From the IMG/VR virus record IMGVR_UViG_3300045988_180644: a stretch of DNA of 64,000 nucleotides, one strand, 5' to 3'. The notes below the pieces were generated by a model. It had not been told where the DNA came from. It did not search any database and saw only the letters and a list, made by a program, of their open reading frames with translations. Made by a program: the position numbers and the translations under genes. Of the stretch, positions 11,791-62,720 are shown in pieces. The DNA comes from a virus. Numbering within the stretch: the first letter of the stretch is position 1; the number at the start of each line of letters is the position of its first letter.

Positions 11791-11802
11791 GACAGGGTAC
11801 TG

Positions 11803-46020: not shown

Positions 46021-46070
46021 AATGCCAGATAAGAAATAAAGCTAAAACAGGGATAATCATATCCCTACAT

Positions 46071-46208
46071 GGTCCTTTAGCTCAGTAGGTAGAGTAGATG
46101 ACTGTTATACATCACTACATCAAATAAAGAAAGTTAAGTACGTGATGTATGTCAACACTTTGTGTTGATAAATCATGGTTACAGGTTCGAATCCTGTAGG
46201 GACCACCA
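46071..46208 (+). tRNA. tRNA-Asn-like (GTT) gene carrying ~62-nt insertion in variable region
   Basis: acceptor GGTCCTT/AGGGACC+A+CCA pairs across 138 nt; D-arm TAGCTCAGTAGGTAGAG; anticodon loop CTGTTAT; insert forms 9-bp hairpin ATACATCAC/GTGATGTAT. Confidence 0.45.
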
Positions 46209-46236
46209 AATATACATTTTTTGTGACAAACAATAT

Positions 46237-46313
46237 TGGTGAGTAGCGTAGTTGGTTAGCGCAATCGGCTGTTAACCGATGGGTCGTGGGTTCAAGTCCC
46301 ACCTCGCCAGCCA
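46237..46313 (+). tRNA. tRNA-Asn (GTT)
   Basis: acceptor TGGTGAG/CTCGCCA, anticodon stem ATCGG/CCGAT loop CTGTTAA, CCA encoded. Confidence 0.7.
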
Positions 46314-46314
46314 T

Positions 46315-46390
46315 GGCCTGTTCGTCTAAAGGTTAGGACACAACCCTTTCACGGTTGCAATGTTGAGTTCAAGTCTCACACAGGTCACCA
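46315..46390 (+). tRNA. tRNA-Glu (TTC)
   Basis: anticodon stem CAACC/GGTTG loop CTTTCAC; GTCTAAAGG D-loop. Confidence 0.65.
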
Positions 46391-46395
46391 AAAAT

Positions 46396-46468
46396 AGACA
46401 TCTAGCATGATGGTAATGCAAAGGGTTAATTACCCTTTATGATATCGGTTCAAGTCCGATGATGTTCA
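46396..46468 (+). tRNA. atypical tRNA-like gene (anticodon loop TTAATTA; A1-C72 mismatch; no CCA)
   Basis: paralog of 45948..46020: same acceptor/D-arm, T-arm ATCGG-TTCAAGT-CCGAT. Confidence 0.45.
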
Positions 46469-46528
46469 GAATCTAATAATTATATAGACTATGTATTATG
46501 TATTGTTATTAGGGCTTAGCCCTAAAGT

Positions 46529-46605
46529 GGACATTTAGCTCAGGTGGTTAGAGCCATCGCCTCATAAGCGATTGGTCGGAGGTTCAAGTCCTTCAATGTC
46601 CACCA
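46529..46605 (+). tRNA. tRNA-Met (CAT), elongator-type
   Basis: acceptor GGACATT/AATGTCC, anticodon stem ATCGC/GCGAT loop CTCATAA. Confidence 0.7.
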
Positions 46606-46615
46606 TATAAAGATG

Positions 46616-46689
46616 GTGAGGTTAGCTTAATGGTAAAGCACTGGACTGTGGCCCCAGTTATACGAGTTCGATTCTCGTACTTCACACCA
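46616..46689 (+). tRNA. tRNA-His (GTG)
   Basis: anticodon loop CTGTGGC; extra 5' G at 46615 (His G-1). Confidence 0.65.
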
Positions 46690-46694
46690 TATAT

Positions 46695-46771
46695 TGGAAA
46701 GTAGCTCAGTTTGGTAGGGCGCACGCTTTGGGAGCGTGAGGGCATGGGTTCAAATCCCGTCTTTCCAGCCA
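46695..46771 (+). tRNA. tRNA-Pro (TGG)
   Basis: acceptor TGGAAAG/CTTTCCA, anticodon stem CACGC/GCGTG loop TTTGGGA. Confidence 0.7.
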
Positions 46772-46776
46772 TATAT

Positions 46777-46853
46777 GCCACCATAGCACAACTGGCAGTG
46801 CAACTGACTTGTAATCAGGAGGTTGGAGGTTCGATTCCTTCTGGTGGCACCAT
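46777..46853 (+). tRNA. tRNA-Thr (TGT)
   Basis: acceptor GCCACCA/TGGTGGC, anticodon loop CTTGTAA. Confidence 0.7.
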
Positions 46854-46857
46854 ATTT

Positions 46858-46944
46858 GGAGAGGTATGCCTAGTGGCGATGGCACCTGACTGTAAATCAG
46901 GCACGTTAGAAACACCGTAGGTTCGACTCCTACTCTCTCCACCA
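46858..46944 (+). tRNA. tRNA-Tyr (GTA), long variable arm
   Basis: anticodon stem CCTGA/TCAGG loop CTGTAAA. Confidence 0.7.
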
Positions 46945-46952
46945 TTTCAAAT

Positions 46953-47041
46953 GCCCAAATGGTGAAATCAGGTAGACACACTGGACTTAAAATCCAGAGG
47001 AAAATAATTCCGTGCCAGTTCGAGTCTGGCTTTGGGTACCA
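46953..47041 (+). tRNA. tRNA-Leu (TAA), long variable arm
   Basis: anticodon stem CTGGA/TCCAG loop CTTAAAA. Confidence 0.7.
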
Positions 47042-47047
47042 TATTTT

Positions 47048-47122
47048 GCGGGTGTGATTCAACGGCTAGAATGTCAGCCTTCCAAGCTGAATACGTGGGT
47101 TCGATTCCCATCACCCGCTCCA
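47048..47122 (+). tRNA. tRNA-Gly (TCC)
   Basis: acceptor GCGGGTG/CACCCGC, anticodon stem TCAGC/GCTGA loop CTTCCAA. Confidence 0.7.
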
Positions 47123-47127
47123 TAAAT

Positions 47128-47217
47128 GGAAAGTAAATCCAAGAGGTTTTGGAACACGCCTGCTAAGCGTTGTGTGGGTATGACACCCATGAGTTTCGAT
47201 TACTCTGCTTTCCGCCA
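47128..47217 (+). tRNA. tRNA-Ser (GCT), long variable arm
   Basis: anticodon loop CTGCTAA; 90 nt. Confidence 0.65.
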
Positions 47218-47220
47218 TAT

Positions 47221-47296
47221 ACGTCCTTAGCTCAGAGGAAAGAGCACGCGCCTTCTAAGCGTGATGTCAAAGGTTCGACTCCTTTAGGGCGTACCA
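47221..47296 (+). tRNA. tRNA-Arg (TCT)
   Basis: anticodon stem CGCGC/GCGTG loop CTTCTAA. Confidence 0.65.
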
Positions 47297-47305
47297 ATTC
47301 AATAT

Positions 47306-47382
47306 CGCGGGGTAGAGCAGTTTGGTAGCTCGTCGGGCTCATTCCCCGAAGGTCGCAAGTTCAAATCTTGCCCCCGCAACCA
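47306..47382 (+). tRNA. initiator tRNA-fMet (CAT)
   Basis: C1xA72 mismatch, three G-C pairs in anticodon stem (TCGGG/CCCGA), loop CTCATTC. Confidence 0.7.
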
Positions 47383-47384
47383 AT

Positions 47385-47459
47385 GGTGCATTCGTATAAT
47401 GGTTAGTATGCTTGACTGTCTATCATGAGATAGGGGTTCGATTCCCCTATGCACCGCCA
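47385..47459 (+). tRNA. tRNA, probably Asp (GTC); anticodon arm imperfect
   Basis: acceptor GGTGCAT/ATGCACC, T-arm AGGGG-TTCGATT-CCCCT; loop CTGTCTA. Confidence 0.5.
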
Positions 47460-47465
47460 AAAAAC

Positions 47466-47550
47466 GCCGAATGTCCGGGTGGTGAGGAAGGAATCTTGAA
47501 AACTCTGGGCGGGCAACCGCTTGCAGGTTCGAATCCTGTGTTCGGCGCCA
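47466..47550 (+). tRNA. tRNA-Ser (TGA), long variable arm
   Basis: loop CTTGAAA; 85 nt. Confidence 0.55.
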
Positions 47551-47551
47551 C

Positions 47552-47627
47552 GGTTTCGTAGCTCAATAGGTAGAGCGCGTGGCCGAAGACCACGGCAGTA
47601 TTGGTTCAATTCCAGTCGAAACCACCA
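47552..47627 (+). tRNA. tRNA-Phe (GAA)
   Basis: anticodon stem CGTGG/CCACG loop CCGAAGA. Confidence 0.7.
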
Positions 47628-47632
47628 TAAAT

Positions 47633-47711
47633 GGGAAATGGGACTGCTTGGAGTGGTCATCTGTTTTGCACACAGAACATCAGATGGATTCGAATCCCAT
47701 ATTTTCCACCA
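47633..47711 (+). tRNA. tRNA-Ala (TGC)
   Basis: anticodon stem TCTGT/ACAGA loop TTTGCAC. Confidence 0.6.
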
Positions 47712-47718
47712 AAAATCT

Positions 47719-47793
47719 AGGAGCGTAGCACAAAGGTGAGTGTACACGACCGATAATCGTGCGATGTAAGTTCGAGTCTTGCCGTTCCTACCA
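47719..47793 (+). tRNA. tRNA-Ile (GAT)
   Basis: anticodon stem CACGA/TCGTG loop CCGATAA. Confidence 0.7.
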
Positions 47794-47800
47794 TTTATAT

Positions 47801-47874
47801 CATCTGTAGCTTATATGGTAAAGCCACAGCCGTTAGTGCTGGGGAAGTTTGGTTCGACTCCAGACCGGATGCCA
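47801..47874 (+). tRNA. atypical tRNA-like gene; anticodon loop CGTTAGT (would read TTA = ochre UAA if functional)
   Basis: T-arm TTTGG-TTCGACT-CCAGA, acceptor CATCTGT/CCGGATG with one mismatch; position-33 G. Confidence 0.35.
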
Positions 47875-48283
47875 GAGTTAAGGATTCTCTGAGAAAAATC
47901 TATATTGGAAAGGACCACGGTGAGGAACTGTAAGCTTTTTTGCGACACTATTCCAAAACCGAAAGCATCTAGCTAATGCCTTGTTGGTCTGAGTTTCAAG
48001 TGCGAGGTTTGGGGCGACTTGAATAAAAATAGTATGGGAATAAAAAATCTGACGACAGCCGGATTGACAATATATTTCCGTCCTGTATAGGTAAAAGTGG
48101 TTTGATGTGAACCGTCAAAAGAAAAAACATCGCTGTCAAATACCGAACAAAGGATAAGAGTAGGTAAAAGACAAACCAGAATTCTTGAGGCTATTAACCT
48201 CTATTTGAATATCATTGAATAAGTTAATGGTCAACAGTCCATTGGGTAACTCCATAGGAGCGCTGTTAGGTCTTTTCTTTTAT

Positions 48284-48360
48284 AGCAGAATGGCGAAATT
48301 GGTAGACGCACAGGACTTTGACTCCTGCATTTGAAGGTTCGAATCCTTCTTCTGCTGCCA
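48284..48360 (+). tRNA. tRNA-Gln (TTG)
   Basis: acceptor AGCAGAA/TTCTGCT, anticodon stem CAGGA/TCCTG loop CTTTGAC, CCA encoded. Confidence 0.7.
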
Positions 48361-48375
48361 AAATACTCAAATAGG

Positions 48376-48969
48376 GTGATAGATTTGTCAACTTATTATG
48401 ATTATTATGTTTTTATTAAAAAGGATAATGAGTTTAAGTATGCTGGATACTATGATATCTCTGGCAAACCCCTTCCCATATATTATCATACCCGTAGCTT
48501 CTCATACGGTTTCTTAGATTATGGACAATACGTTAATGACCTAGATAAATATGGTATCCATTTACCAAACGAAGGTGATGAGGAAGATGAAGCCAGATTT
48601 GGTTACCTTTTCCAATTACCAGACATAGATTCCATTCCAGACAGAAGCCATAAAGAAGCTTATATATATCAAACTCTACAAAGAGATATGGAAATTAATC
48701 ATTTCGAATATGACATAGAAGAATATTTGGAAAATGATGAAGAATCTGTCGATGGGCATCCACTTGTTATCTGCAAGAGCGAATTTGATAGATTGTCATT
48801 AGATAAACAAAGGGAATATTTTTACTATCACTGGACTGATTATGAAGATATGTCCTACCATAGAAATATTCTATGTACCATCATCAATAACTGGATTAAT
48901 ATAAGACAATTCAAGGAATTCAGTGATGTAGATAGAAAAGACATTTATATTGTTGCCTTTGGAGGGTAG
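48376..48969 (+). CDS. hypothetical protein (start uncertain)
   Basis: tracker ORF begins inside tRNA-Gln; candidate GTG start VIDLSTYYDYY just after it. Confidence 0.4.
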   Translation: MIDLSTYYDYYVFIKKDNEFKYAGYYDISGKPLPIYYHTRSFSYGFLDYGQYVNDLDKYGIHLPNEGDEEDEARFGYLFQLPDIDSIPDRSHKEAYIYQTLQRDMEINHFEYDIEEYLENDEESVDGHPLVICKSEFDRLSLDKQREYFYYHWTDYEDMSYHRNILCTIINNWINIRQFKEFSDVDRKDIYIVAFGG

Positions 48970-48983
48970 GGGGGGTGATGTAA

Positions 48984-49712
48984 GTGCAATGTAAAATATA
49001 TAAACGCACTTGGTCGTTGAAAAGGAAGTATCAATCAGAAGCGAGTTGTTATTATCTTTTTGATATTGATTATCCTTTTCCTTATAAACCATCCTATTTA
49101 AAAGCTCACAATTATCCTCGATTTTGGTGGACAACAGAATGGAATCTTATCTGTGATGAATTCAATCCTGAAAAGTATGAAGATATGGAATGGTTTAGGA
49201 AGAATGTTGCAGGATGCTTTGTGTCTCCTAAAGCGCTTAAATATATTCCATTTGCCAAATCAGATGATGATTTCCCTGTCCATGAAATATATGAAATAGA
49301 AGTTGTACAATATAAGGTAGTCAATGAAATGAGCTATCCTATAGATATGAATAACTATATCAGTGATTATATTGAGGAAAATATTAGAAGGCGTAAGGAA
49401 ACAGCACAACATTTCGATATTGGTCGTTATTATCCATCTCTACGCTACTATTGGCGAAATCCTCAAACAACAAATGAAAAAAGACAGCAGTTATCTAAAG
49501 AGGAGAAAAGATACTATCAGGAAAACGGATGGCCTATCCAAGAACGTTCTAAAAGAAATGCAAGGAATTTGCCAGACCTGTTTGACGATAAATTCATCCA
49601 TGTTGATAAATGCTGGAAATCTCAGACTCGTCAGTCTCGACAATATTTTAGAAATAAAAGAGCCAAAAGAAAAAGAATTCATGGAGAGGAATATAGGAAT
49701 TTTGTGGGGTGA
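48984..49712 (+). CDS. hypothetical protein with basic C-terminus
   Basis: 242 aa; GTG start; RNKRAKRKRIH tail. Confidence 0.5.
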   Translation: MQCKIYKRTWSLKRKYQSEASCYYLFDIDYPFPYKPSYLKAHNYPRFWWTTEWNLICDEFNPEKYEDMEWFRKNVAGCFVSPKALKYIPFAKSDDDFPVHEIYEIEVVQYKVVNEMSYPIDMNNYISDYIEENIRRRKETAQHFDIGRYYPSLRYYWRNPQTTNEKRQQLSKEEKRYYQENGWPIQERSKRNARNLPDLFDDKFIHVDKCWKSQTRQSRQYFRNKRAKRKRIHGEEYRNFVG

Positions 49713-50011
49713 TATTCTTGTCATATACTCAAAAACGTCATTCAAAAGAAGATATTCGACATGAAGCATGTGTTCATATCAAAAGAAAAGAAAAAATATT
49801 AAAGAATGTTTATGATGCGGGCAATGGTGAATGTAAAAACAATGAAAAACTTGGCTCTTACTACGGATACACGAAAGGAAAGTCGCACCGTCTTTCAAAA
49901 GGCAAAATTCATTGCTCCTGTCCAATGTGTAGAGAAAAGACGAAGGAAAGAGGATGGAAACACGCTGATGAAGTCAATATGATGAAAGGACTTGAAGATG
50001 AGAGAGAATAG
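49709..50011 (+). CDS. small basic CxC...CxxC protein (paralog of 51856..52113)
   Basis: SHRLSKGKIHCSCPMCREKTKERGW vs THRLSDAKIHKSCPLLQRKTNKLGY. Confidence 0.5.
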   Translation: MIFLSYTQKRHSKEDIRHEACVHIKRKEKILKNVYDAGNGECKNNEKLGSYYGYTKGKSHRLSKGKIHCSCPMCREKTKERGWKHADEVNMMKGLEDERE

Positions 50012-50134
50012 CCAATGTGAATGATGGATAATTCTAGAAAAAATCCGTCAAGACTCTACTCCTATTGAGGATGGGAAAAACTCAAGCTGAAAGATGCACC
50101 AATAACCAAGTATAAGAGGAAGGCTGTTTTATAT

Positions 50135-50209
50135 CTGTCTGTGGTCCAAAGGATACGATACAGAGCTACGGACTCTGTGATGATGGTTCGATTCCATCCA
50201 GACAGGCCA
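50135..50209 (+). tRNA. tRNA-Arg (ACG)
   Basis: acceptor CTGTCTG/CAGACAG, anticodon stem CAGAG/CTCTG loop CTACGGA. Confidence 0.65.
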
Positions 50210-50221
50210 AGAGGTAGAAAG

Positions 50222-50833
50222 ATGATAAGAGATTTTGTTTATCAGAGACTTGAATCTATGATAAACACTGTACCAACAGAACATTCTCAATCTCTTAATC
50301 AATATGCGAAAGATTTTATAAAAGGAATACAAGAGAAATGTGATGTCACAATGTCACATGTGTTTATCGAAAATTTCCCTATGATAGTTACTATTCATGA
50401 TATAGGGAAAAAGCATATTCCAGATTATATTTTAGAAAAAACAACTCAGTTGACGGATGATGAATATGAATGTGTGAAACATCATTGCATTTTAGGATAT
50501 GAAGACTTGCAAAAAGCTTTCAACAACATACCTCTGAATGAAGAAGAAAGGGAGTTGATAGAATTATGCAAGGAATCATGTTTATATCATCACGAAAGAC
50601 TTGATGGGAGCGGATATCCTTATGGTTATAAGCAAATCCCTCTTATCGCTCAGATGGTAGGAATTCTTGATAGTTTTGATGCTATGACTGTAAACAGATG
50701 CTATAAGAAAGCCATGAGCAAAGAAGAAGCTATCAAAAAACTTATTCAATCAGACAAATATAATGAGGAATTTATTTATGTATTATCGGAGGTGATAGAA
50801 AATGAAAATGAAATTAGAAATTCAGACAAATGA
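50222..50833 (+). CDS. HD-GYP domain phosphohydrolase (cyclic-dinucleotide phosphodiesterase family)
   Basis: HDIGK...HHCILGYED...HHERLDGSGYPYGY signature; start moved past tRNA-Arg to ATG (MIRDFVYQ) with AGAGGTAGAAAG RBS. Confidence 0.75.
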   Translation: MIRDFVYQRLESMINTVPTEHSQSLNQYAKDFIKGIQEKCDVTMSHVFIENFPMIVTIHDIGKKHIPDYILEKTTQLTDDEYECVKHHCILGYEDLQKAFNNIPLNEEERELIELCKESCLYHHERLDGSGYPYGYKQIPLIAQMVGILDSFDAMTVNRCYKKAMSKEEAIKKLIQSDKYNEEFIYVLSEVIENENEIRNSDK

Positions 50834-51008
50834 ATTGAATGTAACATATGAAGAATTAGTCAATCATGTTAAAGACTCTTTAAAAATGAAGAATGTCCCT
50901 TTAACAAAAGTGAAAGATGTAAAAGCATATTATGTTCCTAACACAAAAGTTTTGTATTACACAGCCATGTATAATGGTGAAGAAATCAAAGGAGAAAAAT
51001 ACTTGTAG
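50802..51008 (+). CDS. hypothetical protein
   Basis: 68 aa ORF overlapping HD-GYP 3' end. Confidence 0.4.
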   Translation: MKMKLEIQTNELNVTYEELVNHVKDSLKMKNVPLTKVKDVKAYYVPNTKVLYYTAMYNGEEIKGEKYL

Positions 51009-51009
51009 T

Positions 51010-51450
51010 TTTATACTTACAGTTTTCTCTTTATGCCAGCATTGCGATGAAACCTCCTCGTGGTTGCTGGTGGGTCGCGCTAATATCATCACAAGAAACA
51101 GACATATGGCTGAAAATCCTTTCAACGGGATAAGGCACACTTGCTTCATGGTGGGTGGAATTCCCATTACAGAAACTCGATTGAGATATAACATAAAGTG
51201 GTTCCAAGATGAACAATGCCGTTTGTAAATTGGCTGTGCGGACAAGGCTTTCCTATCCGGGTAACAAGGAAAGGGAAATCCTTCTGGTGATGCAAAGGTC
51301 GAGGCACAGGCTCCATGGTAGAAAAATCCAGAGAAGAAAAACATATGGTGATATATTCTGTAGTTGATACCATGGTTGAAGGTTACAGAGTCCTTTTTTA
51401 ATGCAATGAAAGCAAACGAGGAGCAGCATGTTGAGGTATGTACGTCTGTT
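51010..51450. ncRNA. ORF-free, GC-elevated ~440 nt block immediately upstream of tRNA-Gln: candidate structured RNA
   Basis: only overlapping low-complexity ORFs on both strands (50901..51539 etc.); GC-rich relative to flanks. Confidence 0.3.
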
Positions 51451-51453
51451 TGT

Positions 51454-51528
51454 ATCGGGATAGCATAATGGTAATGCGCATGGCTCTGAACCATGTCAGT
51501 GGAGGTTCGAATCCTTCTCCCGATGCCA
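51454..51528 (+). tRNA. tRNA-Gln (CTG)
   Basis: acceptor ATCGGGA/TCCCGAT, anticodon stem CATGG/CCATG loop CTCTGAA. Confidence 0.65.
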
Positions 51529-51683
51529 AAATAATGCAAATGACCTAAATCATGATAAAATGATAGTGGTAATCCTAATATCAGGAGCCACTATAATAGA
51601 AGATGGTAGCAGGGAACTATCATCTTCACTATTACATTAAAAAAAAGGAGAAAGATGATAGAAAACCACTATCATCTTCAAAT

Positions 51684-51758
51684 ATCTCCATAGTTTAGTT
51701 GGTAGAACGTCGGTCTCCAAAACCGAAAGCAGATGTTCGAGTCGTCTTGGAGGTGCCA
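51684..51758 (+). tRNA. tRNA-Trp (CCA)
   Basis: acceptor ATCTCCA/TGGAGGT, anticodon stem TCGGT/ACCGA loop CTCCAAA. Confidence 0.65.
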
Positions 51759-51759
51759 T

Positions 51760-51833
51760 GGTTTCTTGGCAGATTGGTTATGCGCAGGACTGCAACTCCT
51801 GTCAAGCTGGTTCGATTCCAGCAGAAATCTCCA
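51760..51833 (+). tRNA. tRNA-Cys (GCA)
   Basis: anticodon stem CAGGA/TCCTG loop CTGCAAC, T-arm GCTGG-TTCGATT-CCAGC. Confidence 0.65.
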
Positions 51834-52113: not shown

Positions 52114-52390
52114 AGAAAATTTCAAGCGTGAAGGGTATCTCTTGCAGATAGCATCCTTTTAAAAAGTAAGTCATATTATAAAGTATATAAGGATACTCTT
52201 TTACTCGCTATCAGATAGCTTGAAATTTGTGAACGTACTTTTCTGTTGTGTGCTTTCCTTGGAAAGCATTTGATGTAGCATCCTTTTAATTCTAAAAAAC
52301 GGAAGATTGGGGAAGCAGAAAAGCTTATCGCTACAAGATAGTTCGCATGGGGCTTTATGCCCCTTTTCTTTGTATATAAGGAGGTCAAAC

Positions 52391-54352
52391 ATGGAATTAA
52401 AGAACAATTATCAGTATTTATTACTTTCACAATATAGAATGGCTGTTTATGATGATACAGAATTGCCATTAACTCATGAAAATCTCATTAAAGCCATCAC
52501 ATTGAATGAGAATCTACTATCTCTCGGTTATACTTTAACAGCTAAGGATATCATCACTTTAGCATCTTCTCCATCATTAGACACCTTTTACTCCTCAATC
52601 AAATCCATCATCCCAAATATCAAAGCCAAGCCAATGTATCCAAACTTTCCAAGTCAGGTCATGAAGATGGATGAGGCAACATATCGCTTCCATCAGATGG
52701 TTCATTATTTTTCAACATATGGTCTTGAATCTATGTTGCCAATTGAGATTTGTAAAGGATGGTTGCCTAGCGTTGAAGACACAGAAAAGAATAAGGAGGA
52801 TGATACGTTATTAGAAGCCAAGGTACTAAGACTTTTACCTTGTAAACTCCAATATCAAACTCCTTACATATTATCTGTATCAAAGACGGAAAGAATGACT
52901 GCCATGGAAAGAGAAATTGTCAGACATGCGTGTACAGAAATTCCTTTAAAAATCCTTCAGGAAACACCTATCCCATTTAAGGAGAATCTATTGGAATTAT
53001 CATGGATTCTTTTCAATACATTAGAAAAGAAGTCTTTCCAGGATACACTTTCAAAAATCTGCAAACATACTGGAGATGTTTTAAGAGTCATCGCATACAT
53101 TTATAAAAGAAATCATTACCATTTCAAGACAAGTCAGAAAAGAATGTTTGTGCAGGTTCTGGAAAGATATTCCCCTGCAGACCTTGAAACAAACCTGATG
53201 CTTTCTTGGAAGAAAAGAGAGGGAAATATCAAGGTTTTACAGGGGATTGATTATCAGAACTACTCTCGCTCATTACCTCATATAAATGCTGTCAAAAAGC
53301 TAAGAAACAAGGAGTTGCGTTCATGGAATGGACAGGTTGATGCTATGCTTAAGATAAAGGATGAAAATGCTGTCTCTTTCATTGGTCAAAGACCAGGAAT
53401 GCTACTGAGAATGATGGCATGGTTGATGAGACTAGGATATGATAAAGAGTCAATCAAGAAGGAGTTGATAAATCATTGTGAAGACTTATCTATGTCAACT
53501 CTTATAACAGTCTTGACGTATTTCGGGGGACATGAGGAAAGAGAAGAGGCTGAAGGAATTTATGAAGTCTTAAGCGAGGTTCTTTTTGAAAAGATGAAAC
53601 ATCTCAAAACACCTCTACAGAACAAGAAAGTCTATGTGGATGAAGGAAACTTCTCTATGATAGATTCCATTGTTGAGTGTTCATCAAAATCTGATGAGGG
53701 AGGATACATCAGAAGTGGACTTGCCATCAAGATTCCAGAGAATGTAAAGAGATTACGTTTCTTTGTCTACTGGAATGATAAGCATCGTGTAGACATTGAC
53801 CTACACGCTAATGCCTTTGATAAGGAAGGAAATGCATTTCATGTCGGATGGTATGAAGAATATCATAAAAATGGTATCGTGACGTCAGGAGATATCACAC
53901 ATAGCAACGCTGCAGAATATATTGATATTGATATGACAAAGAATGTAGCTCGTGTCGATGCTCAAATTGATATCTACGATGGAAAGAGAAGTTTCAAGGA
54001 AATAGAAGAGTGTTTTGTTGGAATGATGGCTGTCAATCAATTAGGAGAAGACGTGAAGCTATATAATCCAAAGAACTGCTTCTTTTCACATTATCTAAGA
54101 AGTCAGCTGGACTATATGAACTATGGATTTATTGATGTAGACAAAAGACTTCTAATCTTTGGAGGAAAGAATAGAATAGAAGACTTGTACTCATCAAAGT
54201 TCAATCTTAAAGTCTATGTAGATTTGCTTTGCTTGGCACAAGGGGCAACAATGGTTTCCAATAGAGAGGAAGCTGAAATCATCTTAAGTGTAGATAAGAG
54301 AGAAGAAAAGAATAGCGTTTCTCTATTGGATAATAACTTTTTTGTTGAATAG
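52391..54352 (+). CDS. large protein with C-terminal TerD-like domain
   Basis: C-terminus VDIDLHANAFDKEGN...SGDITHSNAAEYIDIDMTK...IDIYDGKRSFKEIEECFVGM parallels TerD DLDASAF...TGDNRTGEGDGDDE...TIHDAQARRQSFGQV; start at ATG (MELKNNY) after AAGGAGG. Confidence 0.55.
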   Translation: MELKNNYQYLLLSQYRMAVYDDTELPLTHENLIKAITLNENLLSLGYTLTAKDIITLASSPSLDTFYSSIKSIIPNIKAKPMYPNFPSQVMKMDEATYRFHQMVHYFSTYGLESMLPIEICKGWLPSVEDTEKNKEDDTLLEAKVLRLLPCKLQYQTPYILSVSKTERMTAMEREIVRHACTEIPLKILQETPIPFKENLLELSWILFNTLEKKSFQDTLSKICKHTGDVLRVIAYIYKRNHYHFKTSQKRMFVQVLERYSPADLETNLMLSWKKREGNIKVLQGIDYQNYSRSLPHINAVKKLRNKELRSWNGQVDAMLKIKDENAVSFIGQRPGMLLRMMAWLMRLGYDKESIKKELINHCEDLSMSTLITVLTYFGGHEEREEAEGIYEVLSEVLFEKMKHLKTPLQNKKVYVDEGNFSMIDSIVECSSKSDEGGYIRSGLAIKIPENVKRLRFFVYWNDKHRVDIDLHANAFDKEGNAFHVGWYEEYHKNGIVTSGDITHSNAAEYIDIDMTKNVARVDAQIDIYDGKRSFKEIEECFVGMMAVNQLGEDVKLYNPKNCFFSHYLRSQLDYMNYGFIDVDKRLLIFGGKNRIEDLYSSKFNLKVYVDLLCLAQGATMVSNREEAEIILSVDKREEKNSVSLLDNNFFVE

Positions 54353-54501: not shown

Positions 54502-55965
54502 ATGTTAAATACTATTTTATCGCCAGGAATTATTATAGGAGCCATCGTTATTATCATTATTGTTTTGATTATGTTGACTGGTTATGTCAAGGCATCGCCA
54601 GATACGGCGTATATTATATCTGGATTGAGAAAAGAACCAAAAGTTTTGATTGGTAAAGCAGGAATTAAAATACCTTTCCTAGAAAAGAAAGATGAATTGA
54701 ATTTACAATTAATTCCTATTGATGTACAAACTTCTAACGCTGTACCAACAGCCGATTATATCAATATCAATGTCGATGCTACAGTGAATGTAAAAATCAG
54801 TGACAAAACAGAATTATTGAATTTAGCTGCACAAAACTTTTTAAATAAATCGACAGAATATATTGCAAGAGTAGCACGAGAAGTCCTTGAGGGAAACGTT
54901 CGTGAAATTGTCGGCCGAATGAATTTGGAAGAAATGGTTTCTGATAGACAAAAATTTGCTGAATTGGTTAAGGAAAATGCAGAACCAGATTTGGCAAAAA
55001 TGGGATTAGATATCGTTTCTTTTAATGTTCAGAATTTCATGGATGACCAACAAGTTATTGAAAACCTTGGTGTTGATAATATTGTAAAAATTCAAAAGAA
55101 TGCAGCCATTTCTAGAGCAGTGAGCGAACGAGACATTGCAGAAGCCCAATCAAAAGCTTCACAAGAAGCCAATGATGCTAGAATTGAAGCGGAAACAAAA
55201 ATTGCAGAAAGAAATAATGAATTAGCCATTAAACAGGCAGAATTAAAGAAGGTTTCTGATGCAAAGAAAGCAGAAGCAGATGCTGCTTATAAGATTCAAG
55301 AAGAACAATCTCGTAAGTCTATTGAAATTGCCACTGCAGATGCTAACATTATGCGCCAAGAAAAGGAAATTGAATTAAGAAGAAAAGATGTAGAAGTCAC
55401 TGAACAAGAATTAGAAGCCAAAATCAAAAAACAAGCAGAAGCTGAAAAATTTGCTGCTCAACAAAAAGCTGATGCTGAATTGTATAAGCGTCAAAAAGAA
55501 GCTGAAGCAAGATATTTTGAGACTCAAAAAGAAGCCGAAGCTCAAAAGGCTCAAGCAGAAGCTATCAAATATCAAATGGAACAGGAAGCTGCAGGTATTG
55601 CAGCCAAAGGTGAGGCTGAAGCCAAAGCCATTGAAGCAAAAGGTATTGCTGAAGCTCAAGCTCTTGACAGAAAAGCAGAAGCTATGAAAAAATATGGAGA
55701 AGCTGCCATTGCTGAAATGTATTTCAATGCTTGGCCAAAAGCTGTTGAAGCCGCTGCAAAGCCACTTGAAAAGGTTGGTAATATTACTATGTATGGTGAA
55801 GGAAACAGTGCAAAGCTTATTGAGGACGTTATGAAAAGTACAACTCAAGTCAATTCAGGTTTAGAAGGAAGTATCGGCATGGGATTAAATCCAATGTTAT
55901 CTAGTTTGCTTGGAATCAAAGCAATGTCAACTTTATCTGATAATCAGCTTAATGAAGGAGAGTAA
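54502..55965 (+). CDS. floT: flotillin-like SPFH/band-7 protein
   Basis: N-terminal TM, SPFH domain, long AEAKA/EAEA coiled-coil repeats; 487 aa. Confidence 0.8.
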   Translation: MLNTILSPGIIIGAIVIIIIVLIMLTGYVKASPDTAYIISGLRKEPKVLIGKAGIKIPFLEKKDELNLQLIPIDVQTSNAVPTADYININVDATVNVKISDKTELLNLAAQNFLNKSTEYIARVAREVLEGNVREIVGRMNLEEMVSDRQKFAELVKENAEPDLAKMGLDIVSFNVQNFMDDQQVIENLGVDNIVKIQKNAAISRAVSERDIAEAQSKASQEANDARIEAETKIAERNNELAIKQAELKKVSDAKKAEADAAYKIQEEQSRKSIEIATADANIMRQEKEIELRRKDVEVTEQELEAKIKKQAEAEKFAAQQKADAELYKRQKEAEARYFETQKEAEAQKAQAEAIKYQMEQEAAGIAAKGEAEAKAIEAKGIAEAQALDRKAEAMKKYGEAAIAEMYFNAWPKAVEAAAKPLEKVGNITMYGEGNSAKLIEDVMKSTTQVNSGLEGSIGMGLNPMLSSLLGIKAMSTLSDNQLNEGE

Positions 55966-56632: not shown

Positions 56633-56727
56633 AATAAAAACAACAAAAACTAGATAATAGCATATCTATATTGACTGAAAACAGTTAATATGATATAATA
56701 TGTATACATTTGAAGGAGGTATGATAG

Positions 56728-57621
56728 ATGGCCAATAAAAGCTTTATTATTAATAAATTAAAAGAAAGATTAGCATGGATGAAGGAAAATACTGACTATA
56801 ATGTGGCATTTATCTGTCTTCAGGGAAGCCAAAATTATGCTATGGATACAAAAAAAAGTGATGTTGACGTTAAGTGCTTTATTGTTCCTACGCTAAAGGA
56901 CATGGTAAGCAATAAACAACCAATCAGCAAAATTTATACTATGGATGATAACAGCATCATTGATGTTAAAGATATAAGACTGTTACCTTCATTGCTACAT
57001 AAATGCAATCCATCTTATCTTGAACTTTTATATTCTGATTATTTTTTAACAAACAATTCTTATCATCGCGTACCGACTTTAAGATTGAAAAAACAGTTAA
57101 AGAAAGTTCGTCATGATATTTGCAATAGAGATGTGATGCGTTTTATGAAATGTTTAAAAGGGAATATTCATGATAGGCGTAAACATATGGAAAAAGAAAC
57201 AGAAACGACAGCTAAGGACATTGAAATCTATGGATATGTTCCTAAAGACTTTCATCATTTATTGAGATATACTTACATGATTGAAGAAATCAATAGACTT
57301 GGTAAAATCAAGTTTGAGTCATTAATGTCTCTTGATTTTTTAACAAAGCCGAAATTCAATGAATTAAAGCTCTACAAGACAAATCCAGTTTCAAAAGTGG
57401 AAGCCATGAGATTAGCAGATATGTATGTCAATAAAGCGGATAGAATTGTAGAAGAATTTGAAGCAAACTATAGTGGCAATATTAATGATGAAATTGATGA
57501 AAAAGTGAAACATTATGTCAATGAGTATGTAGAGTTCTGTATTGAACGTGATGTGATTACAGAATTCGTTGACAAGGTTCAACAAAAGAAATTAAAAGAA
57601 GTAGAAAGAGAAAGGAGCTAA
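56728..57621 (+). CDS. nucleotidyltransferase-domain protein (Pol-beta superfamily, ANT(6)/Lnu-like size)
   Basis: FICLQGSQNYAMDTKKSDVDVKCFIV = GS...D.D NTase motif; GGAGG RBS. Confidence 0.6.
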   Translation: MANKSFIINKLKERLAWMKENTDYNVAFICLQGSQNYAMDTKKSDVDVKCFIVPTLKDMVSNKQPISKIYTMDDNSIIDVKDIRLLPSLLHKCNPSYLELLYSDYFLTNNSYHRVPTLRLKKQLKKVRHDICNRDVMRFMKCLKGNIHDRRKHMEKETETTAKDIEIYGYVPKDFHHLLRYTYMIEEINRLGKIKFESLMSLDFLTKPKFNELKLYKTNPVSKVEAMRLADMYVNKADRIVEEFEANYSGNINDEIDEKVKHYVNEYVEFCIERDVITEFVDKVQQKKLKEVERERS

Positions 57622-57690
57622 GTTATAATTTTATAGAATCTGAAAAGCTACCTTTTATGGTGGCTTTTTTTTCTTAGGAGGGATACAAGC

Positions 57691-58191
57691 ATGACTTTAG
57701 AAGAATTAAAAAATATTAGTAATGAAATCAAGATAAGAAATAGTACAGGTACTCATATGATAAAGCATGTTTTTATTTATAAACCTTCAAAGAAAACATT
57801 TAAGACCTTTCAAAAATTAAATTTACCTTATATAAGTGACTTAATTCTTTCAATAGATGAGGACAAAAAATCATGCTTTCAGTTCTACTATGAGTCTCAT
57901 CTAGAGAATGAGTTTCATGGTGTTATAGATATAGAATGCAATGAAAATGGTTTTTGTTCCTATGTCTGTTTTAAAACAAGATACTTGAGAAAGAAATCTC
58001 CAAATAAGTATAGAGATTTATGCAATTTTGAAATATATGGCGTCATAAGGGGTGGGAAGTTATTTCAATATCAGGTTTATACATCGATAGCTTTTTATAA
58101 AGATGCTGATATTTGTCCGGGTTGTGGAAATATTAATTATTTAAGCTATCAAGAAGCGTTAAAAAAAAGAAATAGCTATTTACATGAATAA
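57691..58191 (+). CDS. hypothetical protein, paralog 1
   Basis: MTLEELKNISNEIKIRN... paralogous to next gene. Confidence 0.6.
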   Translation: MTLEELKNISNEIKIRNSTGTHMIKHVFIYKPSKKTFKTFQKLNLPYISDLILSIDEDKKSCFQFYYESHLENEFHGVIDIECNENGFCSYVCFKTRYLRKKSPNKYRDLCNFEIYGVIRGGKLFQYQVYTSIAFYKDADICPGCGNINYLSYQEALKKRNSYLHE

Positions 58192-58237
58192 CCCAGATTT
58201 TGGGCTAAGAAGAATGTATACACTGAAATAAAAGGAG

Positions 58238-58726
58238 TTGAAAAATATGACTTTAGAAGAATTCAAAAGTGTCAGCAATGAAATTAAATTAAGAAATATG
58301 ACATCTCAAAATATGATTCGACATTGCTTTATTTATAATCCAACAGAGGAAGATATTCAAAATCTTGTTAAGATGAAACTCATATATCATGAGCATAAGG
58401 ATTCAGATTTCTTTACATTTGGAAAGTGGAAGCGTCCAAACAATGAAATGATTTCCTTTTTGAATGTAAAGATAGATATTCAATGCAATGAAGAAGGATG
58501 TGTAGCTTATACATGCTTCTTTGCTACTGAAGGAGGAAATAATAATAATCGAGGATATCTGAATTTAAAAGAAAACGAAATCATAGGAGTTATTCATAAT
58601 CATCAATTTGGTTATTCAAAGTATGAGTCACTTAATTTTTATTTAGATATGTTATGTAGAGATAGAGAAACAAGACCTGATTTCTCTATATATCAAGAAA
58701 TTCAAAAAGCAACAGCTTTATGTTAG
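58238..58726 (+). CDS. hypothetical protein, paralog 2
   Basis: MTLEEFKSVSNEIKLRN... Confidence 0.6.
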   Translation: MKNMTLEEFKSVSNEIKLRNMTSQNMIRHCFIYNPTEEDIQNLVKMKLIYHEHKDSDFFTFGKWKRPNNEMISFLNVKIDIQCNEEGCVAYTCFFATEGGNNNNRGYLNLKENEIIGVIHNHQFGYSKYESLNFYLDMLCRDRETRPDFSIYQEIQKATALC

Positions 58727-58762
58727 AAAATTTATTGGGATTTTACCCAGGAGTGAAAGGAG

Positions 58763-59257
58763 TTGGAATTAAGAAATCTATTCCCTAATGAAGCTTTGGA
58801 TTTTACACCATGGCTAGCAAAAAACAATTTAATACCAGATATCATTCATACCCTCAACCTCTTTGATAATCCTATCCATCTCTATAAGACTGAAGTTTCA
58901 GTAGGAGACTATCGTTTAGATATGATTTACAAAGAATCTGGAGGGAAGGGGAGTCTGATAGTAGAAAATCAATATGGCGACAGCGACTCCCGACATCTCG
59001 GACAAATCATCGTTTATTCCAAGCTGACTCATATACCTAAAATACTGTGGATATGTGACAAGGTGTGCTTGGAGCATCGAAGAATATCCGAGAGTTTGAA
59101 TGGTATCGAGATAATCCCAGTGTCTATGGAGATTGTTCCTAGAGCAGAGGGAGGATACTTCCTTAAATCTCACATATATGGCAACTATAACCGAGTTTTG
59201 ACTTATCGACTTGGGGAAGATTGTGAGGTTTTGGGAAGGATTATAAATGGAGTGTAG
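58763..59257 (+). CDS. hypothetical protein
   Basis: 164 aa ORF. Confidence 0.55.
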   Translation: MELRNLFPNEALDFTPWLAKNNLIPDIIHTLNLFDNPIHLYKTEVSVGDYRLDMIYKESGGKGSLIVENQYGDSDSRHLGQIIVYSKLTHIPKILWICDKVCLEHRRISESLNGIEIIPVSMEIVPRAEGGYFLKSHIYGNYNRVLTYRLGEDCEVLGRIINGV

Positions 59258-59296
59258 ATATAATTTCTTTTGAAAAAAGCATGAGGAGGTAGGAGA

Positions 59297-59737
59297 ATGG
59301 AAATCACAATAAACTCAAATATATTAATTGGAAGTATTATTGCAATTATAGTCATTGTTTTTAGTCTAATAGGACTATTTTGTGATGAAGATGAAAAACT
59401 TCTGTCTCATATGGGATATTTTGCTTGTTTCTTTTTTGGAACATCAGCGTTAGCGTTAGTCCTTTTTGGAAACAGTGTATTATATTCTGAAAATACGGTA
59501 TTTCTAACAGAAATTCCTAATACTCATGAATATTATATTTATCATCAAGGAGATGAACAAAGTTCATTGCAGTATATGGAAGGAAATAAATTGATAACTG
59601 ACAAAGTCAATGATTTAGAGATTATCTATGATGCCAAAGATGAACCTTATATGGAAATAGAGGAAGGGAAAAGCATCATCAATCAGACAATAGAAAAAAA
59701 TGTAACTATTCATATGACTGTTGAGGGAAATGAATAG
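59297..59737 (+). CDS. small membrane protein, tandem paralog 1 of 5
   Basis: N-terminal TM helices + conserved C-terminal YxxxxxPYMEIEE...V.IH module. Confidence 0.6.
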   Translation: MEITINSNILIGSIIAIIVIVFSLIGLFCDEDEKLLSHMGYFACFFFGTSALALVLFGNSVLYSENTVFLTEIPNTHEYYIYHQGDEQSSLQYMEGNKLITDKVNDLEIIYDAKDEPYMEIEEGKSIINQTIEKNVTIHMTVEGNE

Positions 59738-59782
59738 ACTTGAGATGCCAAAATGGCATTTCAAGATGTGAGGAGGTAATAG

Positions 59783-60244
59783 ATGGCAAATGTAATTATT
59801 ATACTCGGAATAATTTTTTTAATCATTGGATGCGTTTATGCTATATATTGTTTCATAAATGAAATGGGCTTATATATGACGATATTCTTTTCTGTGTTTT
59901 GTTTGGTCATAGGTGGGATACTCATAAAAGATGGAATAGATAGGAAGAACGCTAAAGAACAAGAACAAATGAGAAACGAGATTGTTGATATTGATGAAAG
60001 AACTGTTGTTCTCAAAGAATTACCAGAGCAATCATCGTATTATGAGGTTCAGAATTTGTCTGGTGGTACAAAGATAAAATATTTGGATGGCAAAGAATTA
60101 GTGACCTTAAATATTGATAATTATAGAGAATTCTATGATGCTAAGAATCAACCATATATTGAAATCAAAGAGAGCAAAAATACATACGGTGACGTGCTAG
60201 AAACAAATGTTGTTATTCATTTGAAGGAGCTAGAAGATGAGTAA
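59783..60244 (+). CDS. small membrane protein, tandem paralog 2 of 5
   Basis: KYLDGKELVTL...QPYIEIKE...VVIHLKELE. Confidence 0.6.
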   Translation: MANVIIILGIIFLIIGCVYAIYCFINEMGLYMTIFFSVFCLVIGGILIKDGIDRKNAKEQEQMRNEIVDIDERTVVLKELPEQSSYYEVQNLSGGTKIKYLDGKELVTLNIDNYREFYDAKNQPYIEIKESKNTYGDVLETNVVIHLKELEDE

Positions 60245-60668
60245 TAATGAACTTTTCCTTTATATAGGATTCGCATGTTTCTTCTTTGCGTTTATAGCTT
60301 TCTTGCAATTTCTTCGGGATGATTATGATATTGTTATGAAGGAGTTTAGAGAAAGAGTATCCTTTTTCATCATTTCTATAATCGTAGGATTCTTATGTTT
60401 GATTCCTGTGACGACATCTACTCAGGAAAATACTATCAAACTCAAGCCTATACCTGAACAAGGAACTTATTACACGTATCAAGAGATTGATAAAACAATA
60501 CGATATTTAGATGGGAGCGAATTAAAGAGCATGAAAGCAAATAGCTGTAAGGTTCTTTTTGATATTAATGATGATAGGCAGCCATATATGGTGAAAACTG
60601 ATAATTATAATATTTATGGTAATAAAATTAAAACAGAAGTCATTGTTCATCTTAAATATAATTCTTAA
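60237..60668 (+). CDS. small membrane protein, tandem paralog 3 of 5
   Basis: RYLDGSELKSM...QPYMVKTD...VIVHLKY. Confidence 0.6.
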   Translation: MSNNELFLYIGFACFFFAFIAFLQFLRDDYDIVMKEFRERVSFFIISIIVGFLCLIPVTTSTQENTIKLKPIPEQGTYYTYQEIDKTIRYLDGSELKSMKANSCKVLFDINDDRQPYMVKTDNYNIYGNKIKTEVIVHLKYNS

Positions 60669-60676
60669 TAGAAGAG

Positions 60677-61102
60677 GTGATGATTTTGATAAGATTTAAT
60701 ATAGTCATGATTTTATGTCTTACAGGAATTTTGACTCTTTCTATTTATATGCATAAAAAAACTGAAGATAATTACTTTTTTCCTATTTTTACCTGTGTAA
60801 TAACGATTTTAGTTCTTGGATGTGCTTTAATAGAAAGTTGCATCACGTCTACCGAAGAAAGCATTGTTTATCTGGAACAAATGCCAGACGAATCCAAATG
60901 CTATTATCACTATACAAACAAAGAAGATAATAGAACAATAAAGTATTTAGATGGAGCAGAAATGGTTACATTGCCCGTTGACGAATACAGGTTATATTAT
61001 GACTCGGATGATAAACCATACATGAAAATTGAAGAAAATAAGAATCTTTTTGGTAGAACCGTTCAAACGAAAGTGGTTGTCCATCTGGAAAAATTAGAGT
61101 AA
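60677..61102 (+). CDS. small membrane protein, tandem paralog 4 of 5
   Basis: KYLDGAEMVTL...KPYMKIEE...VVVHLEKLE. Confidence 0.6.
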   Translation: MMILIRFNIVMILCLTGILTLSIYMHKKTEDNYFFPIFTCVITILVLGCALIESCITSTEESIVYLEQMPDESKCYYHYTNKEDNRTIKYLDGAEMVTLPVDEYRLYYDSDDKPYMKIEENKNLFGRTVQTKVVVHLEKLE

Positions 61103-61122
61103 TAAGAGTAACGGAGGTATAT

Positions 61123-61548
61123 ATGATAATAGCTGTAAGTCTAATATTAATGGGGATATTCTTATTTTGTTTATGTATTTATTTTATGTCCGAATTTTGT
61201 GATATGCTTGGGTTTATATGTGTTATTTTAGCCTCGATTTCTTTTGCTGTTGGGATTTTTTATCCAATAAATGAGAAAACAACAAAATACTATATCGTTT
61301 ATGAAATGAAAAATAATGAAAATGTAGCCTTGCTAGATAGCAACAGCGACGAATATATAATGAAGTATATAGAAGATAATGAATTGAAGACAATAGATGA
61401 AGACAAGTCTGATACCAAAATTTATTTTGATGCTGAAAAGCCATTTATCGAGGTGGAAAGAATACAAACTCTATTCTTTAGTGGGACGTCTATGAGCTTG
61501 CATTTTCAAACACAAAAACAGATGGAAAAATTGATAGAAAATGAATAA
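61123..61548 (+). CDS. small membrane protein, tandem paralog 5 of 5 (most divergent)
   Basis: same TM + C-terminal architecture. Confidence 0.55.
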   Translation: MIIAVSLILMGIFLFCLCIYFMSEFCDMLGFICVILASISFAVGIFYPINEKTTKYYIVYEMKNNENVALLDSNSDEYIMKYIEDNELKTIDEDKSDTKIYFDAEKPFIEVERIQTLFFSGTSMSLHFQTQKQMEKLIENE

Positions 61549-61575: not shown

Positions 61576-62277
61576 ATGGATAAAACAAATCAAAGTATCG
61601 AACAGATATTTACAGACCCAAAAAATCTTGATAACTTCTTAGAAAATCCCAAGGAGTTAGAATATATATTATACGAACTTCTGACTCAAGGTGATAATAT
61701 ACGTTTCATTCAAATACTGACATTATTAAAAAGAAGGTTAAATCAAATAACTAGAACGTCTGAAGAAAATAATGAAAAAGCATATAAAATTGGATGTGCT
61801 GAAGGAATGTTAAATCTCTGCATGAAAATTGTCACTTTTAATTCTGAAAAAGAAATGAAAGAAATGAATTCCTCTGAGAATTTAGTAGAGAATATAGAAA
61901 ACAATTGCTGGCATAGCACATTGGTAGACAATCCAGATGAAGATGGCCAATATTATGTTTTCATATCTAATTGTATGGATAACTCTAATGAAGTGCGCAA
62001 ACTTGAATATAAAAACAAGCAATGGGATATATCAGATAATGATTATGATAGAATTTTGGCATGGAAGCCTATAGCAAGAAAAATCATATTTGATGAAGAA
62101 GCATGGTTAAAAAATCATATTAATGAAATACAAACAGCTTTTCATAATGATAAAATACAATATAATGATTGCTTTATTGCAGAGACTTTAGAAGAGTGTA
62201 TAAGTGAATATGAATATTTCTTATGGGCAGGATATGTACGATTTATCGACGATATATTTGTAATAATAGTTATTTGA
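61576..62277 (+). CDS. hypothetical protein
   Basis: 233 aa ORF with GGAGG RBS. Confidence 0.55.
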   Translation: MDKTNQSIEQIFTDPKNLDNFLENPKELEYILYELLTQGDNIRFIQILTLLKRRLNQITRTSEENNEKAYKIGCAEGMLNLCMKIVTFNSEKEMKEMNSSENLVENIENNCWHSTLVDNPDEDGQYYVFISNCMDNSNEVRKLEYKNKQWDISDNDYDRILAWKPIARKIIFDEEAWLKNHINEIQTAFHNDKIQYNDCFIAETLEECISEYEYFLWAGYVRFIDDIFVIIVI

Positions 62278-62336
62278 TTCGCTTTTTGCTAATGTAAATT
62301 ATCCAAAGAAAGATAAAAAAGGGGAAAAGAAGACAG

Positions 62337-62720
62337 ATGAATAACAAAAAAAATTATGAAATCAAAACGGATGAAGATTACAATATCTATATATTGGCTA
62401 CATCCTATGAAATAGATGACCTTATTAAAATGAAAGAAGGGTTATTGTCTAATCCACGTGGATATTCTAAAAAGGAGTTATCTAAGGCAATAGAACTTTA
62501 TAATACAGAGGAGTTTATAAATATAAGAGAAGACCTTTTGAAAGATAATATTGTGGCATCCTATGAAGTAACACTTATTATTGATGATTTTGGTAAAGAC
62601 TTTTATTCGATTTATGATGAACCAGAGATAGATGAGTATTTAAAAGGATTTTCAAATGAAAGATTTCGTATAAAGAATATAAAACATTTAAAGGCTTTGA
62701 AAAGATATAAAAATTACTAA
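62337..62720 (+). CDS. hypothetical protein
   Basis: 127 aa ORF. Confidence 0.55.
   Translation: MNNKKNYEIKTDEDYNIYILATSYEIDDLIKMKEGLLSNPRGYSKKELSKAIELYNTEEFINIREDLLKDNIVASYEVTLIIDDFGKDFYSIYDEPEIDEYLKGFSNERFRIKNIKHLKALKRYKNY

Follow-up and report, generated by a model that had tools for sequence, protein, structure and literature searches.

What role could five tandem genes for small, related membrane proteins play on a mobile element of gut bacteria? The question is posed by a 64,000-nucleotide (nt) stretch of DNA, IMG/VR virus record IMGVR_UViG_3300045988_180644 (the window), in which an initial annotation, made from the letters alone, had marked five consecutive genes for proteins of ~145 amino acids (aa) at 59297-61548 and had suggested that their products might serve in immunity, superinfection exclusion or receptor masking. 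The genes, here called M1 to M5, form a diversified array whose products may act as a panel of membrane exclusion or immunity-type factors; superinfection or entry exclusion is ranked first among the readings considered, as a tentative assignment. Genes for a nucleotidyltransferase (NTase), two paralogous soluble proteins (S1 and S2) and a small nuclease-like protein lie upstream. The array is laid out as follows.

59297-59737, + strand: M1, 146 aa, a predicted membrane hairpin and beta domain.
59783-60244, + strand: M2, 153 aa, whose hairpin occurs in two unrelated allelic forms.
60237-60668, + strand: M3, 143 aa, the sole paralog with a non-acidic C-terminal domain.
60680-61102, + strand: M4, 140 aa from its ATG; the lister of open reading frames (ORFs) starts at a GTG at 60677.
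61123-61548, + strand: M5, 141 aa, the most divergent paralog.

Every gene that the initial annotation had listed is present at its coordinates on the + strand, with a GGAGG-type ribosome-binding site before each, and the tandem arrangement of five genes (140-153 aa products) is borne out. The start of M3 overlaps the stop of M2 by 8 nt, and the other gaps in the array are 8-45 nt. The start of M4 is likely the ATG at 60680, as called in relatives; one database protein (P0001) is 99% identical to M4 over 140 aa. By BLASTP, M1-M4 match one another with E-values of 1e-10 to 1e-25, far beyond chance, and M5 is a weak outlier, with pairwise E-values of 2e-4 to 0.1 against the other M proteins; M5-type orthologs from two relatives (L001 and L009) score ~18 bits against a hidden Markov model built without M5-type sequences. 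M5 has the same size and architecture as M1-M4 and has in common with them the motifs KY(L/I)(D/E)..EL, Y(Y/F)D...P(Y/F)(M/I)E and H(L/F). Judged by these comparisons, M1-M4 are clear paralogs and M5 is a divergent member of the family.

The structure calculations describe a two-part architecture. In particular, the full-length AlphaFold model, which was made for M4 from an alignment of 36 family members, has helices at residues 2-29 and 34-55 followed by seven strands, with a predicted local distance difference test (pLDDT) score of 82; when the C-terminal domain (C-domain) is modelled alone, it folds into a seven-strand antiparallel meander (pLDDT 92, predicted template modelling score 0.80). 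As modelled, each M protein is an N-terminal two-helix membrane hairpin followed by an all-beta C-domain of ~80 aa. The membrane anchor proposed earlier is retained, and its count of one or two transmembrane helices is revised to two. In a 21-sequence alignment of C-domains, the invariant residues are a Tyr, an Asp and a His, and a Pro is nearly invariant; with the most distant members included, the Tyr alone is still invariant, and the His nearly so. The C-domains of all paralogs but M3 are acidic (isoelectric point 4.3-5.1). The loop between the helices comes in two kinds. In M1, M3, M4 and the distant members it is long and K/R-rich, which predicts a C-domain outside the cell; in the M2 and M5 types it is very short and acidic, which predicts a C-domain inside.

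Fold comparisons with the C-domain gave weak matches resembling the oligonucleotide/oligosaccharide-binding (OB) fold, and a PDB sequence search with the C-domain profile returned chance matches only. No housekeeping domain was matched by the array proteins. Among the top six weak structural matches of the C-domain in BFVD are three proteins (149-168 aa) of Siphoviridae sp. ctHip2; this uncharacterised trio, which comes from one gut phage assembly, may be an analogous set of paralogs.

Comparison with the relative L001 shows where the array has diverged. The flanking genes are 97-99% identical, with a synonymous divergence (dS) of ~0.1-0.15, while M2-M5 are 69-83% identical with a dS of 0.25-0.70, so that dS is raised 2- to 6-fold in these genes. 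At the nucleotide level, identity is 95-100% in the flanks, 76-84% at M3-M5 and 54% exactly at the M2 hairpin (59800-60000). The M2 hairpins have 33% identity, which is the background level, and the M2 C-domains 97%, indicating that the hairpin was replaced outright. For M4, compared between the window and L009, the hairpin and C-domain are 20% and 66% identical; for M5, the values are 49% and 83%. M3 is the exception to this pattern (88% for the hairpin and 80% for the C-domain). Overall, orthologs of M1 have identities of 49-98%, and those of M5 of 61-99%. The ratio of nonsynonymous to synonymous divergence (omega) is below 1 in all pairwise comparisons, at 0.05-0.24 for the C-domains and 0.26-0.86 for the hairpins, and thus gives no pairwise sign of positive selection. 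By these ratios, purifying selection maintains the C-domain of each type.

Further, the array moves between backbones as part of a cassette. Over a block of 3565 nt that spans the nuclease-like gene, M1-M5 and the two genes that follow, the relatives L001 and L003 share 99.8% identity, whereas outside it their flotillin genes are 87% identical, their NTase genes 70% and their downstream sequences 78%. A block of such identity between diverged backbones implies that the cassette moved recently between them; the flotillin and NTase genes are both outside it. On these alignments, the array is a local hotspot of divergence and recombination.

Array content also varies among relatives. Most sampled strains (L001-L007 and L016-L025) agree in having these five genes in this order, and across the elements the number of intact copies ranges from one to six, accompanied by frameshifted, truncated and anchor-less copies. 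For example, L008 has one intact M1-type gene and a 71-aa copy without an anchor, and in L015 M1 is frameshifted, the M2 slot holds a different 140-aa type, M3 is truncated to 85 aa, and M4, M5 and a further 137-aa type follow. The arrays of L009 and L010, which occur without the NTase, S and nuclease genes, consist of a divergent 137-aa copy, a helix-turn-helix gene, a 42-aa remnant of M1, M2, M3, an extra M5-like 148-aa gene, M4 and M5, in this order. At least three tandem copies are found in L014, and single copies in L012 and L013, in unrelated small plasmid- or phage-like contexts. The array genes are therefore not single-copy core genes in relatives, and these differences in copies and types indicate that at least eight types circulate in the clade. 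The orthologs cluster by type across elements, which indicates that the duplications are old and that there is no concerted evolution. Near other copies of the array there are SocA_Panacea or PemK genes. In L015, a pair of IS200/IS605-type genes (a Y1 transposase and OrfB/TnpB; 10219-11863) lies ~2.3 kb downstream of the decayed array.

A panel of envelope factors that act independently best explains the turnover, allelic replacement, cassette exchange and purifying selection on the C-domains, although we hold this explanation only tentatively. Each M protein would sit in the cytoplasmic membrane via its two-helix hairpin and carry a compact, seven-stranded, mostly acidic beta domain. The proteins would act singly, not in a fixed complex, and the panel would block the entry or establishment of related phages or elements in a cell that already carries the element, with each paralog type covering a different competitor. 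The analysis shows the architecture, the paralogy, the restriction to one clade, the turnover, the hairpin replacement, the cassette transfer and the purifying selection on the C-domains; how the proteins face in the membrane, what they act on and exclusion itself are inferred. Turnover and exchange, which are usual for competition or defence genes, on a mobile element, beside a defence-like nuclease gene, favour a role in competition, and the different subsets of M genes kept by different elements argue against an obligate five-subunit complex. Also counted for exclusion are the position of the array, in an accessory and variable part of a mobile element whose origin is plasmid-type, and the defence-related neighbours (the PDC-S11-like nuclease here, SocA_Panacea or PemK elsewhere). 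Two helices and a small soluble domain are, moreover, the general build of many phage exclusion proteins.

Several observations weigh against exclusion. The five-gene order is kept in most sampled strains, which also fits a conserved cooperative function. An omega below 1 even in the hairpins means that the diversity could stem from recombination and relaxed constraint alone. By the K+R bias, M1, M3, M4 and the distant members would have an external C-domain, whereas that of the M2 and M5 types would be internal. There was no match to a known exclusion, immunity or defence protein among the families scanned and, in particular, none in PADLOC-DB v2 for M1-M5, S1 or S2 at E<=0.1. Finally, a capsid or terminase gene was not seen in the parts of the element that were examined, which may be a phage, a phage-plasmid or a plasmid. 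What stands of the conflict-type interpretation in the initial annotation is the diversified array, with its turnover, hotspot and cassette exchange; a toxin, a PADLOC match of the five proteins, positive selection and an NTase partner did not emerge.

The likeness to known exclusion proteins is one of build. Membrane proteins for superinfection exclusion in phages, such as the lactococcal Sie2009, gp15 of HK97 and Imm of T4, make up a functional class and not a sequence family. Like them, the M proteins are small, encoded by a mobile element, composed of N-terminal helices and a small soluble domain, ORFan-like in sequence and located in a variable accessory region. Unlike them, they come as five tandem paralogs rather than as a single gene, and no sequence or structural similarity between the two was found.

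The next reading, which we consider unlikely, is an orphan immunity array in which each paralog neutralises a different membrane-acting or secreted toxin of competing bacteria, whether a bacteriocin, a toxin of the type VII secretion system (LXG type) or another polymorphic toxin. Firmicutes are known to have tandem immunity-gene arrays beside polymorphic toxins (the EsaG/DUF600 and TsaI arrays of Staphylococcus aureus are examples), and the M array resembles them in its tandem divergent paralogs, copy-number variation, pseudogenes and recombination. Turnover and allelic replacement among such paralogs would fit an immunity role, as would the membrane anchor and the replacement of whole hairpins, since the hairpin could contact a membrane-inserted toxin; further, the distant single copy in L012 adjoins a gene for an Rce1/CPBP-type protease, a group often annotated as bacteriocin immunity. 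The toxin itself is missing from this picture. A search for an upstream polymorphic toxin, as the initial annotation had advised, found no toxin, WXG100, LXG or Rhs match (Pfam) in the larger window ORFs tested, the largest ORF of the window being at most 748 aa, or beside any other array; the 2377-aa neighbour of the array in L014 has BiPBP_C repeats only and is in convergent orientation. Directly upstream of M1-M5, where a cognate toxin would be expected, there are instead the NTase, S1/S2 and the small nuclease-like protein. The M array further differs from the Firmicutes arrays in having no secretion gene found near it, no homology to those or other known immunity families, and carriage by a large mobile replicon; the M family keeps to a single element clade and has not spread with a toxin family.

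Could the paralogs instead be specialised subunits of one hetero-oligomeric membrane assembly that serves the element itself, in membrane remodelling, export of DNA or particles, or control of lysis? The conserved order of the five genes in most sampled strains would suit such an assembly, as would the tight or overlapping spacing, which suggests translational coupling, the grouping of orthologs by type and the purifying selection on the C-domains. Yet L008 makes do with one intact copy, L009 lacks M1 and has an extra M5-like gene, L015 has decayed M1 and M3, and the distant relatives are single-copy; moreover, replacement by an unrelated hairpin is hard to square with fixed helix-helix packing. 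A common assembly is accordingly ranked third and appears quite improbable.

Distinctly doubtful, too, is a more specific form of the exclusion proposal: a two-module exclusion or immunity system built on an undescribed beta fold, in which a constant, type-specific ectodomain would be combined with interchangeable hairpins that set the specificity. It would be directed at competitors that insert into the membrane, for example tape-measure or channel proteins of phages, or pore-forming toxins, and elements would shuffle types and hairpins by recombination into different protective panels. A possible twist is that the paralogs insert in opposite orientations, given the K+R bias of M1/M3/M4 versus M2/M5.

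In short NfeD proteins (PF01957), N-terminal membrane helices precede an OB-fold beta-barrel at the C-terminus, and the proteins act together with SPFH/flotillin scaffolds. A role of the M proteins as NfeD-like partners of the element's flotillin is suggested by their size (~140 aa), the order of membrane helices and small beta domain, the weak OB-like fold matches and the FloT-type flotillin gene (54502-55965; Band_7 4e-22, NCBIfam FloT 1e-76) on the same strand 3.3 kb upstream, but it is highly improbable: none of the five M proteins matches Pfam NfeD in hmmscan even at E<=1; flotillin and array are set apart by six ORFs (50 aa or longer) and by a promoter and a terminator, both predicted; the flotillin gene lies outside the exchanged cassette and is absent in L005, L016, L018, L022 and L024 despite a 100%-identical array; and the arrays of L009, L013 and L014 have no flotillin nearby. 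Exclusion, toxin immunity, hetero-oligomeric assembly and NfeD-like partnership are thus ordered from first to last, and the remaining probability belongs to functions not considered.

Two candidates were rejected outright. A class II holin was considered, the sole holin match being a sub-threshold one of M2 (13.9 bits against a Pfam cut-off of 28.4); instead of the short, highly charged tail of such a holin, the M proteins end in an acidic beta domain of 80 aa that is folded, and no endolysin or lysin is found among the neighbours. A type IV pilin-like identity was considered as well. Like the minor-pilin clusters of type IV pilus and competence systems, the array has tandem ~140-aa paralogs with a hydrophobic N-terminus and a C-terminal beta domain, and relatives have a Peptidase_A24 prepilin peptidase ~10 kb downstream; unlike minor pilins, none of the M proteins has the G/F-x-x-x-E class III signal at its N-terminus (a short basic leader with Gly at -1, Phe/Met at +1 and Glu at +5), and in the M4 model a charged loop joins two helices into a hairpin, where a pilin would have a single long hydrophobic helix packed on its sheet. 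The prepilin peptidase gene adjoins one for an FtsH-like AAA protease (L001 19024-20423; L003 18902-20423), and between it and the array the relatives encode a MoxR-type AAA_5 ATPase and a large vWA-like protein; L002 has an integrase and an SAP-domain protein instead of the prepilin peptidase region.

The features on either side of the array are the following.

56671-56699, + strand: sigma-70-like promoter (TTGACT, 17-nt spacer, TG-extended TATAAT), 11/12 matches.
56728-57621, + strand: NTase, 297 aa, Pol-beta fold, RlaP family (Pfam PF10127 2.3e-9; phrog_388 4.8e-13).
57642-57669, + strand: intrinsic-terminator-like hairpin (11-bp stem, then TTTCTT) after the NTase gene.
57691-58191, + strand: S1, 166-aa soluble protein, paralog of S2 (40% identity, E 2e-22).
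58247-58726, + strand: S2, 159-aa paralog of S1, from an ATG; the ORF lister uses a TTG at 58238.
58763-59257, + strand: PD-(D/E)xK-like protein, 164 aa (PADLOC PDC-S11 2.9e-27; phrog_27742 6e-7).
61576-62277 and 62337-62720, + strand: two genes after the array, 233 aa and 127 aa, that travel with it.

The initial annotation had named a Pol-beta-type NTase and a pair of ~165-aa paralogs upstream of the array; both identifications hold, and a fourth gene, at 58763-59257, had been missed. The NTase scores 37.8 bits against PF10127 (gathering cut-off 23), and G33-S34 and D45-V-D47 make up its GS...DVD motif. It had further been proposed as an effector or antitoxin-type partner of the array, which the analysis rejects. 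The NTase gene has its own putative promoter, a consensus match only and the top match of the region scan, and its own predicted terminator, and appears from these signals to be a separate transcription unit outside the array module; moreover, it evolves at backbone rates (99% identity in L001, 68-72% in L003, L008 and L015), lies outside the exchanged cassette and is absent beside the arrays on L009, L012, L013 and L014.

The start of S2 at 58247 is the one called in relatives and gives the conserved N-terminus MTLEE. The S family comprises 12 clusters only, all within this element clade, with one or two copies per relative (a single one in L003, L008 and L015), and S1 has no family match in the profile libraries searched (including Pfam, PHROG and PADLOC). 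The gene at 58763-59257 sits between the S1/S2 pair and M1 and opens the exchanged cassette on its left side; L001 and L003 have it at 98-99% identity, and its dS is 0.009 against 0.1-0.15 for its neighbours. Its protein aligns to positions 12-120 of the 318 in the model of PDC-S11, a candidate defence protein, and is not a full-length match, which, together with its length of 164 aa, indicates an N-terminal nuclease-like domain alone. Two candidate roles of the product are those of a nuclease and of a decoy for a host defence protein.

Downstream, the gene pair trails the array in L001-L007 and L009 and includes a 105-aa deletion form and a 131-aa form. The 233-aa gene has the 105-aa form in L001-L004 and L009 (L001 10924-11241), owing to a deletion of ~400 nt (window 61800-62400). 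Further upstream, the flotillin gene is a presence/absence polymorphism, and several otherwise near-identical strains have an unrelated 140-aa gene on the opposite strand in its place (L005 4676-5098), which has no Pfam match. Directly upstream of flotillin, a 681-aa protein (52307-54352) has no Pfam match; its residues 471-590 resemble the NCBIfam MXAN_6230/SCO0854 family RING domain-containing protein at 1.4e-17, far below the cut-off.

As an accessory cassette, the array is carried by a large element of Massilimicrobiota (~256 kb, low GC) that resembles a plasmid or a jumbo phage. Contigs of the element reach 256.5 kb and occur widely, in gut samples from chickens and humans. Massilimicrobiota sp. 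An142 and a metagenome-assembled genome of Candidatus Massilimicrobiota merdigallinarum have records of proteins identical to S1 and M2, the M2-identical one coming from the latter, and the host is therefore taken to be an Erysipelotrichaceae gut bacterium. The window, with a GC content of 28-37% outside its tRNA array, encodes RepA_N, ParA/ParB, RecD-like and RecJ-like proteins, the flotillin and 23-25 tRNA genes. At 32300-34800, gene orientation and GC skew flip across a 2.5-kb non-coding region that contains six copies of the palindrome (A/G)GTTCATATGAAC(T/C), parS-like in look and with ParA/ParB to one side, and at least five GATAG..TTAATAGGATT iterons in both orientations; this region probably serves the element as both origin of replication and centromere. 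To the left of the window, the element is densely filled with tiny ORFs that look phage-like (DUF551, a Gly-radical protein, PARG). The 'Hodor' gut megaplasmids exceed 350 kb and have 45-47% GC (PMC12934698); an identity of the element with them was rejected on both size and GC content.

The tRNA array (45821-51833) comprises 23 genes according to Rfam and 25 according to ARAGORN. ARAGORN alone calls a tRNA-Stop with anticodon TTA (47801-47873), which has G instead of U at position 33, and recoding of TAA was rejected; TAA is the commonest stop codon (34/64 large ORFs), which makes stop-codon recoding unlikely. At 46071-46205 there is a 135-nt tRNA, found by Rfam (51 bits) and not called by ARAGORN, with an insertion of ~64 nt after the anticodon stem, at the position of the variable region.

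Outside these relatives the family is scarce. INPHARED phages gave no match in DNA and protein searches with the region and M2 as queries, nor did an IMG/VR scan with M4; a scan of GTDB genomes with the nuclease-like protein found an unrelated Nocardioides match only, and nothing similar appeared in INPHARED, IMG/VR, PLSDB or GTDB representatives. Seeding another homolog search with the most divergent members yielded only four further small proteins, and multi-stretch matches from the exhaustive search (P0068-P0070 and P0073) were discarded as repeat or compositional artefacts. By these searches, the M family is restricted to one element clade and seen almost nowhere else.

Overall, variable arrays of small membrane proteins encoded in tandem are a kind of thing already familiar from mobile elements, while the M family, and probably its fold, is undescribed; the pattern of hairpin swapping and the unclassifiable domain are its most intriguing features. 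The case also documents an element of ~256 kb that has a large set of tRNA genes and is widespread in gut samples from chickens and humans. If the M proteins are a structural accessory of this element, they would be merely a clade-specific ORFan family of local interest. If they are exclusion or immunity factors, they would constitute a new and structurally distinct family from gut Erysipelotrichaceae, in which, to our knowledge, almost nothing is known about competition among phages and plasmids, and the replacement of a hairpin beside a conserved domain would then be a natural experiment on how specificity is encoded.

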